From: a phage
Length of the DNA: 64,000 bases
Direction: 5' to 3' (one strand)
Sequence record: PZ386958.1
Notes under the pieces: generated by a model
Database searches by the model: none
What the model saw: the letters and a program-made list of their open reading frames with translations, nothing else
Told to the model about the DNA's origin: nothing
Part shown: positions 28,847 to 52,275 of the stretch, piece after piece
Layout: every line of letters starts with the position of its first letter
Numbering within the stretch: position 1 is the first letter of the stretch
Position numbers and translations under genes: made by a program

Positions 28847-29037
28847 TATTCAATATCTACAAGTTCTTGTGCAATGCTTTTTAGATTACCTTTCAAGAAA
28901 ACCTTCTCAGAACCTGAAAGAGATGAATTGTCAATTAACCTGTTCATTCTCTCAAACAACTTCTGCTTACGGTTCTTGATAGTTTCCTTTGAAGCACCTT
29001 TCATCATCGCTGCATGGGTTCTTCCACGGTGGCTCAT
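28828..29037 (-). CDS. hypothetical protein
   Basis: 69 aa basic ORF downstream of the polymerase. Confidence 0.3.
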   Translation of the reverse strand: MSHRGRTHAAMMKGASKETIKNRKQKLFERMNRLIDNSSLSGSEKVFLKGNLKSIAQELVDIEYWRHQK

Positions 29038-29098
29038 AAGCCCTCCTATACAAGATATAGTATAAGGTACTCTTCCATGAGCACCTTGTCAATACTAA

Positions 29099-29655
29099 TT
29101 AGTGTACCTCATACCAGCTTTTACCAACCTTACCAGTACCTGTAACAAGTGTTTCTTTCTTAAGACCTAAGTTCTTAGAAGCTTGTCCATAATACCAGTC
29201 AGTAACTGCTTTCACTTCTGCCGTCATACTTTCTGGACATTCCCAACTCGTCTCGTCGTGATAGGAGCACAATAAACGAGCACCTATAGCTGGCTTGCGA
29301 CCGTTCAACTTCATCAAACCTTCGTCAATCATACGACGGCAAGCAAGGTTAATTGCTTCATTCTGAACCTGTGCTTCCGAACTCATCAGGAGGTAGTTCA
29401 GTAGTTTATGTGGAGATTTGCACCATATCCATGCTCCAGCGACCCTGATATAACCACCTTTAGCAATTGAAGAGTTCTTCCCGAAAACCTCTTCCAGAGC
29501 CTTTTTAGACGCCTTAAAATCGGCTTCTAAGCTATCAAGTAACTTCTTAATCTTTGGCAGACGCATATAGTAAGTTTGTTTAGTCAATGCACCTTCTTCC
29601 GTAGATGATGCCTTGATAGTTTTTGCAAACTTCTCGTCACCTGCACCGAACAATA
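29099..29655 (-). CDS. DNA polymerase (family A), exon 2
   Basis: Begins with TA completing a Leu codon; encodes LFGAGDEKFAK (distal half of motif B) and the motif C-like HDE (LLCSYHDETSWE); reading frame differs from exon 1. Confidence 0.75.
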
Positions 29656-29923
29656 CATCTGGTCAATACACTCGCAAGGTGTACCAGTTCTCTTATGAAC
29701 TTCTCCGCATTTCTACGGAGTGTCGGACTATATCACGTAGTAGTAATACTACCGTTGCACTTGGGAATGGTCATTAGCTTACCACCCTACTCTACTCAGT
29801 TCATACATTAAGTATGCTTTTCGATAGTCTCTGAACGTTTCTCTTAAGAGGCTTCGCTGCTGATTACCATATCTTTACAGACTTAGGCTTCCAGCAATTC
29901 ACAACGTTTTACATGCGCCACTG
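29656..29923 (-). ncRNA. group I self-splicing intron (ORF-less, 268 nt) interrupting the DNA polymerase gene
   Basis: 5' exon ends in U; internal guide GCGCAU at intron nt 6-11 pairs with exon AUGCGU (6-bp P1 with U-G at the splice site); P-, Q-, R- and S-like elements AATTGCTGGAA, AATCAGCAGCG, GTTCAGAGACTA, GATATAGTCCGAC in canonical order; terminal G; no ORF. Confidence 0.8.
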
Positions 29924-32066
29924 ACGCATAAATGCCATTTTTGGCTTTCTTACGACCTTTTGTAATCTCGTGGAGAAGTTCCTCATCCTGTGTCTCCCTA
30001 CAACGAACAATATCTTCTTCCTTGTTCAGACCAAAGTAAATACTGTTCAGTGTATGCGCATCAGTCCCTGTGTAGACTTCATAGAGGTCGTTCTCAGCAT
30101 CATAACGAAGATACTTGTCAGTTTCTGGATTAAGATACTTATCGAGATGCTTGCAATAGTATCTGCCATCATCCTGTTTAGTGAACTCTACAAACTCTTT
30201 ACCCTCAGTTACTGCTTTAGTGAACTCTTTATCACCCATAAAGTTACAAAGGAGAACTAGCTGGGCTGAGTTCATATCAACGGAGACTACGTTGGTTCCC
30301 TCCTCACAAATCCAAACCTCCCTCATCGGTGCTCCATAGACAGCAGCACCAGACGGTACGTTTACAATGCCATATTGTGTCATACGTCCAGTTGAAGTAC
30401 CAAACACCATTGCACCAGCACTAAGGCGACCATCAGGACGAATCTGGTTCAACCAACCTTTTTCATCATCCTTTGAGTTCTCAATAGTTCTGCGTCGGTG
30501 CATCAAAGTGTAGTATTTAGCAATCTTCTGTCCAAGCTCACCTTCAATCGTATCATAAGATGATTCAGTAAGTTTTGGTGAAGTACGGATTAAGCAAGGC
30601 TCAAGCAAATCTGTGTATTTCTTCACAGACCAGTTATGCTCAATGTACTGTACACCTTCATGTTCAACATAACTCAAACCACACCGCTCAACCATTTCCT
30701 GCCACTTAGGATGTTTTGTAATCATCTTTTTATTGTCTTTGAAACGACAAACTTTGACAGGACGACCATCTGAGTCTTTCTTGTAGTTCCAGTCATCTGG
30801 AATCCAACCAACTGATTTCAAGTAGTCTTTAACAACGGCTACCTGAGTCATACGAGAAACTTCAAACTCAATTGGTGTATATGGTGCATCAATCAAACCT
30901 GTGTAGCGACTTGACTCAAGTTCAAAGTGGTTAACAACGTGGCTGTTATAGTACTTCACAGTCTTGACTGTTTTTACTGGTTTCCAGTCTTTGCATTTTT
31001 TGCCAATCTTTGCATTCAACTCGTTGCAGATTGCACGAGCATCCTTCATTGCTACAAAGCCTTCCTTGTATTCTTCACCAGTTACAGTGTTGGTTGGCGT
31101 ATAGCAATTCCTTTTTTCAATGTTAAAAATCTTTGTAGTTGGCTTACCAAATGGCTTGATTTCATATGTCTGCATCTCACCGTTACGTACCTGCTGACGA
31201 TACTTTGTCTTAGGGTACTTGGTAATTCTCTTCAGTCCATCTGCGTGACCAAATGCTTCAACATACTCATTCCAAGCTTTTGCAAACTCTTCTCCAGTAA
31301 CTTTACCTTTGGTCTTAATAGTTGGAGGTAGATGTGGTTCAACCTCTGAAGCAAGCTCATTAGTCAACTTGTCAAGTTCCTTTACATGGAACTCCATAAG
31401 CTCTTTATCAGCTTTCCAACCATTGATAGCTTGTTGACTCATCCAGAAAGATGTTTCTTTAGCTCGCATGTAGGTTTCATAAGTGTCTATGCCACACTTC
31501 TTAAGCTTGAGATACTCGTTATCAAGTGCCCGTTTAGTTTTGGCGTTAATACGGATATCTTCTACAACACGAGTGAAGATTTCTGCATTCCACACACCCC
31601 AATGCTCAATCTCTGGCTTACGAACACCAACACGAGCACCCCATGCAGCCAAGCCATGAGCACCTTTATAACCCTTTGGAGTTGGTCTATCCATCCACTG
31701 AACACGAGACTGAATAAGAGAATCCTGAAAGAAATTACTCCACGGCTTACATTTTGGATTATCAAAGTTCCATAAATCAGGTGCAATGTGATTGAAAACC
31801 CACCAGTCATAGCCGAGACCATTATGGATGCAAAGACGTTTTGCCTTTAACGCAAATTCAACACCTTCACGTAAGCCGCCCTTGATGTACTTGGTATACT
31901 TGTGACCGAGGATAGGCTCGTCTGTAAAGACCCATACAGGCGGCTCTTCATCGTCAGATTTATAATCTGCGAAAGCCATTACGTGCACTTTAGTGAACTC
32001 AAGGAGTAAACCATCAGTTTCTGTATCACCAACCAAATGTAAGTTTTTAAAATCTACGTTTTCCAT
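29924..32066 (-). CDS. DNA polymerase (family A, with 3'-5' exonuclease), exon 1
   Basis: Exo I motif DTETDGL; motif A VSVDMNSAQL; proximal motif B RKKAKNGIYA; start taken as the ATG at 32066 (MENVDF) preceded by GAGGGAG. Confidence 0.8.
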
Positions 32067-32261
32067 TTTTACTCCCTCTAAAATCATTAACCACATACAT
32101 TACTGCAAAAAATTATAAAAAGCAAGTTGACAATGTACTTGACAAGGTGTTAATCTTTGCGAAGTGGGTTTTTACTTAAAAGGTTACTTAACAGTTTAAC
32201 TATACAGATACTTTAAAACTCTTAAAAGATTATTTAATAGCTTTTAAAAAGCTTTAAAGTA

Positions 32262-37946: not shown

Positions 37947-38993
37947 ATGGAGAAGTACACGCTAACAAAACTTCCCGATTCAGTTACACATGTCTTTATT
38001 GACTCTGATAGTATTGCCTATAAAGGTGCTTGTGTAGTTGAGAAAGCAAAATATAAGTATGTCAATAAACTCACAGCAGAAGAATCTGAACCATTTGATA
38101 ATGCAAAAGATGCCGCAAGATGGTTAGCAGACCAGAGAATCCTTGTAGAAGAGCTTGGCCTAGCATTTGATGAAGATGAATGGGAAAGACAGACTTGGAA
38201 AGAAGCTAAGAGTGAAAAAGAAGCTATCATGGCTACTCAGCAGGTTCTTCAGGAATGGCTTAAGGTTGTTGGTAAAGAAAGAACTTGGGTAGGTTATTTA
38301 ACAGAGAAGGGTGTGCATAAACATAAAGACATTAAAGGTCTTGAGCACCAATATCAAGGTAACCGTAAAGATGCCGTCACACCAACACACTTAGTCGCTT
38401 GTCGTGAATACCTTCTGTCAAGACCAGAGTTTAAGCTGATTCTTGATGGATTTGAAGCTGACTCTATCGTAATTGCTAAAGCTGAAAAGATGGGTAAAAA
38501 GGCTGCCTTAATGAGTATTGATAAAGACCTTCGACAAGCTGAAGGTACTTACTGCATTGATATGACCTATGAAAAATCACCTTTAATTTTTATTGCTGAT
38601 AACAACGTTGGTGAAATTTGGGATTGCCCAATAAAATCGACACCAAAAGCTAAGAAGACAGTTGGGGTAGGTTTTAAATTTCTTTGTTATCAAGCTGTGT
38701 CTGGTGATAATGCAGATAACTATTTTGGTTTAAAGGGCGTTGGTAAGGTTGCTGTAATGAAAGCCCTTGAGGGTAAAACCACTTACAAAGAGTGTCTTGA
38801 TGCAATTTATGAGCTTTATGCTAAGAAAGAGTCATACACTTATGTCTCGTGGGATGGTCAAACAATTACCAGAACACCCTTAGAGCTAATGCAGCAACAT
38901 TTCTGGATAGCTTATCAGGAAAGAAATAAGAAAGATGATTTCACTTTTGATAAGTATGGGTGGACACCAAATGTTAACTCAACAAACTCTTAA
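37947..38993 (+). CDS. 5'-3' exonuclease (T7 gp6 / FEN-like)
   Basis: Acidic-cluster pattern typical of FEN/5'-3' exonucleases (FIDSDSIAYKG, ILDGFEADSIV, MSIDKDLRQ, VSGDNADNYFGLKGVGKV). Confidence 0.6.
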   Translation: MEKYTLTKLPDSVTHVFIDSDSIAYKGACVVEKAKYKYVNKLTAEESEPFDNAKDAARWLADQRILVEELGLAFDEDEWERQTWKEAKSEKEAIMATQQVLQEWLKVVGKERTWVGYLTEKGVHKHKDIKGLEHQYQGNRKDAVTPTHLVACREYLLSRPEFKLILDGFEADSIVIAKAEKMGKKAALMSIDKDLRQAEGTYCIDMTYEKSPLIFIADNNVGEIWDCPIKSTPKAKKTVGVGFKFLCYQAVSGDNADNYFGLKGVGKVAVMKALEGKTTYKECLDAIYELYAKKESYTYVSWDGQTITRTPLELMQQHFWIAYQERNKKDDFTFDKYGWTPNVNSTNS

Positions 38994-39471
38994 AGAGTAC
39001 CTACACTATGACCCCGAAACAGGGGTCTTTACTTGGTTAGTTGATAGAAAAGGTAAGGCCAAAGCTGGTTCAGTGGCAGGTGTTAAACACCATAGTGGTT
39101 ATATCTATATAAAACTCCTCGGAAAAAGATATGGAGCACACAGGCTGGCCTTCTTATACATGAAAGGCTACCTCCCAAAATTTGTTGACCATAAGAATTG
39201 TATCAGGTATGACAACTGGTTCGACAATTTGAGAGAATGTAGCAGGTCAGATAATAACTGTAATGCAGTCAAAAGAAGGGATAATAAGTCTGGCGTGAAG
39301 GGTGTATACTACCACAAGCTAACAGGTAGGTGGGCTGCACAAGTTAAGCATAATAAGGTTTGCTATCATCTAGGTCTGTTTGACTCTGTTGCTGATGCTG
39401 AATCAGTTGTCAAAAAGAAAAGAGAAGAACTACATAAAGAGTTTTCAAATCACGGAGAAGCTTATGAATGA
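38971..39471 (+). CDS. HNH homing endonuclease with AP2-like DNA-binding region
   Basis: YDPETGVFTW, KRYGAHRLAF, VDHKNC, DNLREC, SGVKGVYY, ELHKEF; paralogous to 51784..52275; start taken at the ATG at 38971. Confidence 0.7.
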   Translation: MLTQQTLKEYLHYDPETGVFTWLVDRKGKAKAGSVAGVKHHSGYIYIKLLGKRYGAHRLAFLYMKGYLPKFVDHKNCIRYDNWFDNLRECSRSDNNCNAVKRRDNKSGVKGVYYHKLTGRWAAQVKHNKVCYHLGLFDSVADAESVVKKKREELHKEFSNHGEAYE

Positions 39472-51783: not shown

Positions 51784-52275
51784 ATGAATAAGGGTTATTT
51801 TGAAAAATACCTAATATATGAACCAGATACAGGTTTATTAATTTGGAGAGTAACCCTTTGCAGTACCGCTATTGCTGGTAATGTGGCTGGCACAAGGTCT
51901 AAGAAGGGTTATATCCAAGTCCAGATAAATAAGAAGAGGTACTATGCACATAATATTGCATGGATTATGTCTGGAGGTGAGATACCAAGTGGATATGAGG
52001 TAGACCACATAGACCTTGATAAAGCTAATAATAAGTTGGAGAACTTAAGACTTAGCACAAAGTCACAAAATCAGAGGAATAGAGGTATATACAAGAATAA
52101 TAAAACTGGTGTGAAGGGTGTAAGTTTTTGTAAACAAACAGGTCTTTACAAAGCAAGAGTCATGCTTTACCATAAAGAATACTTTTGTGGAAGATTTAAA
52201 ACGGTAGAAGAAGCAAAAGAAGCTGTAATTAAAAAGCGAATAGAACTTCATGGTGAGTTTGCAAGACATAACTAA
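51784..52275 (+). CDS. HNH homing endonuclease with AP2-like DNA-binding region
   Basis: YEPDTGLLIW, KRYYAHNIAW, VDHIDLDKANNKLENLR, TGVKGVSF, ELHGEF; paralogue of 38971..39471; inserted between the Prs-like and Nampt-like genes. Confidence 0.7.
   Translation: MNKGYFEKYLIYEPDTGLLIWRVTLCSTAIAGNVAGTRSKKGYIQVQINKKRYYAHNIAWIMSGGEIPSGYEVDHIDLDKANNKLENLRLSTKSQNQRNRGIYKNNKTGVKGVSFCKQTGLYKARVMLYHKEYFCGRFKTVEEAKEAVIKKRIELHGEFARHN

Follow-up and report, generated by a model that had tools for sequence, protein, structure and literature searches.

The polymerase gene and its interruption

The window, by which we mean the whole 64-kb stretch of DNA that was analyzed (64,000 nucleotides), is from a Felixounavirus (Felix O1-like) phage. 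Its DNA polymerase is carried on the minus strand by two ORFs, 29883..32096 (737 aa) and 29099..29653 (184 aa), which are in different frames. The ORF list agrees with an earlier note on this DNA, which had described two minus-strand polymerase ORFs in different frames with a 268-nt non-coding gap between them. The features of the locus are as follows.

29924..32096, minus strand: DNA polymerase exon 1, with the exonuclease domain, motif A and the first half of motif B (O-helix)
29656..29923, minus strand: predicted group I intron of 268 nt without an ORF, as indicated by RF00028, the helices and the intron-less alleles
29656, minus strand: terminal guanosine (omega-G) and predicted 3' splice site, read directly and placed by the restored ALL peptide
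29099..29655, minus strand: DNA polymerase exon 2, with the second half of motif B and motif C (SYHDE), up to the stop codon

The start codon of the polymerase is given here as 32096 or 32066 because relatives are annotated either way, with a first polymerase piece of 2,184 or 2,214 nt. Exon 1 ends with ...AAT GGC ATT TAT GCG T and exon 2 begins with TA TTG TTC GGT GCA GGT GAC GAG AAG; the intron begins with CAGTGGCGCATG and finishes with ...GACCAGATG, its last bases being ...CCAGAUG. Upon excision of the 268 nt (29656-29923), the two pieces form a single in-frame ORF of 2,730 nt (from 32096). The uninterrupted polymerase gene is 2,730 or 2,721 nt long in Felix O1 and 2,730 nt long in UAB_Phi87. 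The predicted spliced nucleotide join reads ...TATGCGT followed by TATTGTTC..., with the translation ...GRKKAKNGIYALLFGAGDEK... at the join, and the junction-spanning polymerase peptide reads ...GIYALLFGAGDEK. The spliced junction peptide, NGIYALLFGAGDEK, is the same in the intron-less alleles, including that of Felix O1. When both boundaries were moved by one base, the peptide became AVL or ASL, as opposed to the ALL of the intron-less alleles; therefore, the boundaries given above alone fit. These are the exon ends named in the earlier note, which we confirmed by direct reading.

The joined exons had also been proposed to fit the motif B spacing of family A polymerases, by reference to a T7 gp5 motif. 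Both the spacing and the T7 motif were borne out by a phmmer alignment, in which GRKKAKNGIYALLFGAGDEKF of the spliced protein aligned with TRDNAKTFIYGFLYGAGDEKI (residues 517-537 of T7 gp5, motif B of T7 DNA polymerase) with no gap at the join or elsewhere. Exon 2 aligned with T7 gp5 residues 528-639. The gapless alignment therefore indicates that the intron splits the Leu codon TTA, the equivalent of T7 F528, after its first base and between O-helix residues Y526 and Y530. In E. coli Pol I, we take the insertion site to be near L764 (numbering R754, K758, F762 and Y766).

No sense-strand ORF was found in the 268 nt, and the frame of exon 1 continues for 13 codons into the intron, up to a UAA at 29883-29885. 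An intein was considered and rejected, as the two exons do not share a frame and translation from exon 1 would end after these 13 codons. We also observed that relatives such as phage L27 (L001 1651-1839) have a 'hypothetical protein' annotated on the strand opposite the intron, the equivalents of which in the window are plus-strand ORFs at 29613-29777 and 29623-29811. These opposite-strand ORFs are almost certainly annotation artefacts.

Group I identity and RNA structure

The interruption matched the Rfam group I intron model RF00028 with 63.3 bits against a gathering score of 50 (E=1e-13), in line with the group I assignment made in the earlier note. The score of the window copy was below that of several homologues. 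The match spans 29703..29986, placing the variable 5' end in the exon and stopping at P9, 47 nt short of the 3' splice site; a misplaced variable 5' end is usual for this model. Neither a second intron nor any other Rfam match was found in the 64 kb, at the gathering threshold or even at E<=0.1. The structure that we drew contains 74 pairs in 14 helices, which are located as follows.

29919..29923, minus strand: 5' strand of P10, intron nt 1-5 CAGUG, pairing with UAUUG of exon 2 (29651-29655)
29913..29929, minus strand: P1, exon AUGCGU (29924-29929) with guide GCGCAU (nt 6-11, 29913-29918), 6 bp
29902..29906 CGUUG with 29753-29757 CAACG, minus strand: P3, from the Rfam alignment, the MFE fold and homologues
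29858..29896, minus strand: P4 UGCUGG/UCAGCA around P5 GCC/GGU and P5a GUCU-GUAA-AGAU (GNRA tetraloop)
29835..29857, minus strand: P6 GC/GU and minimal P6a CUC-UUAA-GAG, from the alignment with VSe11, VpaE1 and Mushroom and from RNAalifold
29825..29829 GACUA (in R) with 29726-29730 UAGUC (in S), minus strand: P7, forming a pseudoknot with P3
29763..29816, minus strand: P7.1 CAUAC/GUAUG and P7.2 GGGUGG/CCA-uu-CCC
29737..29752, minus strand: P8 GUAGUA-UUAC-UACUAC
29666..29720, minus strand: P9 CUCCGUA-GAAA-UGCGGAG, P9.1 AGUUC/GAACU and P9.2 GUACAC/GUGUAU

The structural elements named in the earlier note all have their place in this structure. The P, Q, R and S elements are in canonical order at intron nt 25-35, 59-69, 88-99 and 190-202; the 6-bp P1 has a U.G pair at the 5' splice site; the CTCCG...CGGAG hairpin near the 3' end corresponds to P9; and the final base is a G. 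P10 consists of 5 bp, two of which are G.U, and both P1 and P10 are unchanged across 10 copies. A Staphylococcus phage homologue with the same 5' architecture has P1 AUGGGU/GCCCAU, which is a compensatory change. The window intron has no P2. The P5a loop is GUAA, GGAA, GAGA or UAAA among the copies in the genus, and the P6a of the window contains a C.A mismatch where most copies have C-G. P6a is also the position at which the endonuclease ORF of the sister introns sits. P7, the guanosine-binding helix, was predicted independently by RNAalifold and was paired in 9/9 sequences. P7.1 and P7.2 are linked by the conserved GAGUAGAGUAG, and the GUA-containing linker reads AACUGAGUAGAGUA. Group IA2 introns are recognized by two additional helices, P7.1 and P7.2, which follow P7 and precede the 3' strand of P3 and are joined by a linker containing GUA (PMC3428280); judged by this criterion, the predicted P7.1/P7.2 and GUA linker of the window intron fit an IA2-like intron.

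The pairing is strictly conserved in the genus. In 10 Felixounavirus copies, 740/740 pair cells were standard pairs, compared with 23-50% in a control with slid partners. About 15 intron columns are variable, four of which lie in helices and keep their pairing (4/4), with the others in loops or bulges; one compensatory pair, two wobble-compatible changes and zero broken pairs were observed. A compensatory change from U-A to C-G is present in P8, where 7/10 genus copies have C-G. In P7.1 and P7.2, one change each (A-U to G.U and G-C to G.U) affects a single strand and retains pairing. P1, P10, P3, P7 and the junction segments are invariant.

The genus copies are 96-100% identical and provide little covariation by themselves, so more distant phage homologues were added; the distant homologous introns score 62-114 bits with RF00028. 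RNAalifold on nine diverse cores recovered P4, P5, P6, P6a and P7, with compensatory changes in 10/23 pairs. P3, P8 and P9 of the distant homologues were compared by an anchored script, as MAFFT misaligned these helices, and were found to form at matching places across homologues, with seven different P3 sequences that all pair and a P8 hairpin at the corresponding position in 9/9 homologues. A plain MFE fold of the window intron alone recovered P3, P4, P5, P7.1, P7.2, P8, P9 and P9.1, and its energy was modestly better than that of shuffled sequence (z = -2.1), the pseudoknot being outside that model.

Intron forms and distribution in Felixounavirus

We found 263 phage records that matched the polymerase region, most at 90-95% identity, and the intron was present at >=80% identity in about 124 of them, that is, in about half. 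Using the spliced junction as the query, intron-less relatives (such as CECAV_041, bumzen and Felix O1) matched as one 402-nt piece, and intron-bearing relatives spanned 670 nt (402 + 268). The intron occurs in the following forms.

805-nt form (such as VSe11, EC6 and FSL SP-010): extended P6a stem whose loop holds a 161-aa ORF
780-nt form (VpaE1): shortened ORF, annotated as two fragments
311-nt form (Mushroom type): extended stem retained, with 43 nt left over from the ORF, its stop codon among them
268-nt form (window): minimal P6a, ORF absent

The extended P6a stem of the 805-nt form is CTCTGTTAGGA...TCCTAACAGAG. From its sequence, the 311-nt Mushroom form looks like the product of a deletion between GACTCCTA and GACTACCTA. 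A single-step deletion was rejected as the origin of the 268-nt form, whose P6a differs from that of the Mushroom form by more than one event. The 268-nt form was found at 96-99.6% identity in many independently isolated plaque-forming phages. The ORF-bearing introns of VSe11, VpaE1, Bas89 and cr3_1 are below the RF00028 gathering threshold because their large insertion interferes with the model, which does not count against their being group I introns.

The ORF of the sister introns matched Pfam Endonuclease_7 (PF02945) with 71 bits over residues 79-159 of 161, and it also matched PHROG 'endonuclease VII' families; it is of the DHHRN (Endo VII-motif) type. No Endo VII homologue is encoded anywhere in the 64-kb window. 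As the earlier note had observed, the window intron contains no endonuclease and the genome carries free-standing ones, with at least two HNH_3+AP2 genes at 38971-39447 and 51799-52266.

Three records with unrelated host names, MG065664 and MG065668 ('Campylobacter phage A132/A126') and GU169904 ('Staphylococcus phage SA1'), contain a Felixounavirus polymerase at 90-94% identity, and the intron too is present in the A132 and A126 records (99.6% identity). These three records are probably mislabelled or contaminated.

Exon patch and mobility

The intron is far more uniform than the exons around it. Over the aligned bases, the window intron was 100% identical to that of VSe11, compared with 77-88% identity in the first 400 nt of the upstream exon and 78-88% in exon 2; it was 99.3% identical to that of L27. 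In addition, a short stretch of exon sequence was found to be strictly linked to the intron. This stretch and the intron gap were placed by direct reading and not by MAFFT.

29639..29931, minus strand: recoded exon patch flanking the intron, 26 exon nt, which travels with the intron

Between the spliced window and the intron-less CECAV_041, there were 23 differences in 602 nt, 10 of which fell inside the 26-nt patch, at -8, -5, -2, -1, +2, +5, +8, +11, +14 and +17. All of these (10/10) are synonymous, and they comprise every codon third position from -8 to +17 together with position -1, where the split Leu codon begins. The patch was not found in any uninterrupted polymerase of the phage collection, the best match being 87.8%, and its absence from uninterrupted polymerases led us to reject both a donor lineage and precise intron loss. 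Intron-less alleles, in which the insertion site reads ATCTACGCCCTGTTATTTGGAGCC, have C and not U at position -1 and cannot pair with the guide sequence, and at least the inner part of the patch would therefore be needed for splicing. The partners of P1 and P10 come from the patch, which may in addition confer protection from the homing endonuclease.

The identity of 99-100% in the intron as against 77-88% in the exons, together with the linked synonymous patch, indicates that the intron was moved by homing, and the sequence pattern is that expected of homing with a short co-conversion tract. Both the intron-bearing and the intron-less alleles exist at one site among close relatives. A homing endonuclease is encoded by the sister copies but not by the window copy.

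The polymerase gene as a whole (29099-32066) is strongly mosaic among close relatives, with blocks of 98-100% identity alternating with blocks of 66-88% (compared with L27 and a second relative, L002); over the final 250 nt of exon 2, for instance, the identity to L27 is 66-78%. This mosaicism suggests that recombination may be frequent around endonuclease and intron sites. We also observed that the window has no HNH_3+AP2 gene at 29037-29099, unlike the same two relatives (L001 590-1123 and L002 590-1102).

Predicted splicing and alternative explanations

Taken together, the segment at 29656-29923 is most probably an ORF-less mobile group I intron in motif B of the polymerase gene, with splicing predicted from its sequence; we place the probability of this reading at about 93%. 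In the proposed mechanism, the guide GCGCAU would pair with the exon end AUGCGU to form P1, and an external guanosine would attack after the U of the U.G pair. CAGUG would hold the start of exon 2 (P10), and the exons would be ligated after the terminal G. Splicing would restore the TTA Leu codon in the O-helix and yield one family A polymerase of 909 or 899 residues. The product of unspliced RNA would end 13 codons into the intron and lack motif C altogether as well as one half of motif B; an active enzyme would therefore require splicing. Since dozens of cultured phages carry the intron, their polymerase must be functional. The intron would have arrived in this polymerase allele by homing, with a short co-converted patch that provides the P1 and P10 partners, and further spread of the window copy would probably need an endonuclease in trans.

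The same two ORFs could be read as a true split gene, in which polypeptides of about 737 and 184 aa are made separately and assemble, and the intervening RNA is irrelevant or a dead intron. Genes split by endonuclease insertions occur in some T4-like phages, GenBank records and one genome announcement give 'two genes encoding DNA polymerases', and an in-frame TTG lies 3 nt into exon 2. However, upon direct reading, no Shine-Dalgarno-like sequence was found before this TTG (29653) or before the next ATG, and the choice of start differs among annotators. The break would also be in the middle of a codon of the O-helix, between the equivalents of T7 Y526 and Y530, with motif C confined to exon 2. 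The interruption scores above the group I threshold with a full set of catalytic helices, and its excision restores the exact peptide of the intron-less alleles; we therefore regard a true split gene as very improbable. A splicing-defective relic, with a polymerase that is disabled or poorly expressed (in a defective variant, or where another polymerase is used), would agree with the loss of the endonuclease gene, a late stage of the homing cycle, and with a minimal P6a that has one mismatch. Among ten copies, however, there were 0 helix-breaking substitutions, with changes in loops or bulges or neutral to pairing, and P1, P10, P3, P7 and the junction segments showed no variation at all. Given that the helices are intact in all copies and that the element is present in many cultured phages, including the independent plaque-forming phages with the 268-nt form at 96-99.6% identity, there is hardly any likelihood of a dead relic.

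A further question concerns the enzyme that would mobilize the intron. Collaborative homing with a free-standing HNH gene has a precedent in the psbA intron of S-PM2 and F-CphI (PMC6083498), and many relatives have an HNH_3+AP2 gene directly after exon 2, just downstream of the polymerase; its two paralogues in the window are those given above. In a 60-record sample, this downstream gene occurred both with and without the intron, and vice versa, so no association between the two was found (counts only). The gene is missing from the polymerase-downstream position in the window, and the DHHRN endonuclease of the sister introns themselves is the more obvious mobilizing enzyme. A partnership with the HNH gene is thus unlikely.

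Earlier descriptions of the locus

The Felix O1 genome paper reported that introns were absent (PMC3185647), which is true of the Felix O1 allele but not of the genus. In another genome paper (PMC5968733), a 'recombination endonuclease VII' is placed between 'two genes encoding DNA polymerases', and the endonuclease VII between the genes has been read as a repair enzyme (PMC8300805). The SPJ41 paper mentioned 'two introns' that came from a scan for ncRNAs but gave no positions for them (PMC9951933). Fang et al. (2018) defined the DHHRN family around F-CphI and listed the Endo VII-motif proteins of JH2, EC6, FSL SP-010 and JES-2013 as intron-encoded (PMC6083498). The ORF-bearing form had therefore been noticed before but not described, and the ribozyme, the host gene and the ORF-less form are not described in that paper. 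We came across no published account of the ORF-less form, the ribozyme, the insertion site or the exon patch.

The window intron is an ordinary member of a well-known kind of phage element, of which it is a new ORF-less example, and it does not change the known working of group I introns. More than 100 public Felix O1-like genomes list two polymerase genes, some with 'recombination endonuclease VII' between them, and once the intron is recognized, an essential gene is annotated correctly in phages under development for the biocontrol of Salmonella and E. coli. Within the genus, the site may be empty or may hold the intron with an endonuclease gene, with a decayed one, with a remnant of it or with no ORF at all, a natural series that could serve the study of the homing cycle in easily grown coliphages.

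Comparison with other phage introns

The introns of JH2, EC6, FSL SP-010 and JES-2013 are the same intron as that of the window at the same site, with a VSe11-type ribozyme that is 99-100% identical and the same exon patch. They differ from the window intron in P6a; these copies are about 780-805 nt long with a 161-aa Endo VII-motif ORF in the extended P6a, while the window copy has 268 nt and a minimal P6a. An ORF-less intron is also present in the psbA gene of cyanophage S-PM2, and in both cases spread would depend on an Endo VII-motif enzyme encoded elsewhere. In S-PM2, the enzyme F-CphI is the product of an adjacent free-standing gene, whereas the candidate enzyme for the window copy is encoded inside the sister introns of other genomes.

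Published intron sites in phage polymerases, in E. coli numbering, are 674 (SPO1, SP82, Bastille and Pf-WMP3), 676 (phiL7) and 881 (PhiI and W31) (PMC3428280). The introns of SPO1, SP82, Bastille, Pf-WMP3 and phiL7 are IA2 introns that splice themselves and interrupt conserved codons of the finger domain in family A polymerases of phages, and that of Pf-WMP3 is without P2, as is the window intron. They differ from the window intron in their insertion sites and in their ORFs, which are HNH nicking endonucleases (PMC3428280). According to the same source (PMC3428280), the site-881 introns are, like that of the window, group I introns in the family A polymerase of enterobacterial phages with P7.1/P7.2, and their ORF is at P6a, as in the ORF-bearing relatives of the window intron. 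They lie in motif C and encode the HNH enzyme I-TslI, in contrast to the ORF-less window intron in motif B (~764); splicing of the site-881 introns was shown experimentally, whereas that of the window intron is deduced from sequence.

Related introns were found in YpP-G (a Yersinia phage of the Berlin group), in LUZ24-like Pseudomonas phages and in KarlSchell_Bas89, whose introns lie within the same 18-nt stretch of motif B. For this comparison, the loci of YpP-G (L025), Pseudomonas phage WS1160 (L026) and Escherichia phage KarlSchell_Bas89 (L008) were set against 29656-29923. The 3' regions of these O-helix ribozymes are related to that of the window, with AGTTCATAAGAGAAC, the P9.1 sequence common to the Bas89 and YpP-G introns, and with UUGAAC, a few bases and a terminal G. 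The Endo VII-type ORFs of YpP-G and WS1160 are 46-52% identical to the Felixounavirus ORF. The insertion codons are F524 (TT/T) in YpP-G, Y526 (T/AT) in a LUZ24-like phage and Y530 (T/AT) in Bas89, compared with the F528 equivalent in the window, and the Bas89 junction was set by its intron-less relative EP335. By the logic of their sequences, the reconstructed joins of YpP-G, the LUZ24-like phage and Bas89 would each restore motif B. The possibility that these introns share the site of the window intron was rejected, as that of Bas89 is 6 nt downstream, that of YpP-G 11 nt upstream and that of the LUZ24-like phage 6 nt upstream. Each of the three has its own guide sequence and retains an Endo VII-type ORF, and Bas89 has a P2.

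With four intron sites clustered in it, the O-helix of the polymerase may be a hot spot for this lineage of introns and endonucleases. A broader reading is that a single lineage of O-helix introns with Endo VII-motif endonucleases has moved among unrelated phage families (Felixounavirus, the T7-like Berlinvirus, the LUZ24-like Bruynoghevirus and the Bas89 group) as its guide was retargeted to four positions that are staggered over about 18 nt of motif B. ORF-less copies would then spread in co-infection by means of a sister endonuclease acting in trans, and the patch would determine immunity to that endonuclease besides serving as the docking site for P1 and P10. We offer this broader reading tentatively and consider it rather doubtful as a whole.

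Outside the genus, the nearest relative of the ribozyme was found in the N4-like Escherichia phage vB_EcoP-ZQ2 (L007 460-703), with 72% identity over intron nt 14-222 and 91.8 bits; this intron splits an annotated RNA polymerase gene and is followed by an HNH ORF. We also found two group I introns in Vibrio phage 1.193.O (L014 547-778 and 995-1245), with 84 and 78 bits, which split a terminase gene that is annotated as three 'terminase-like' proteins.
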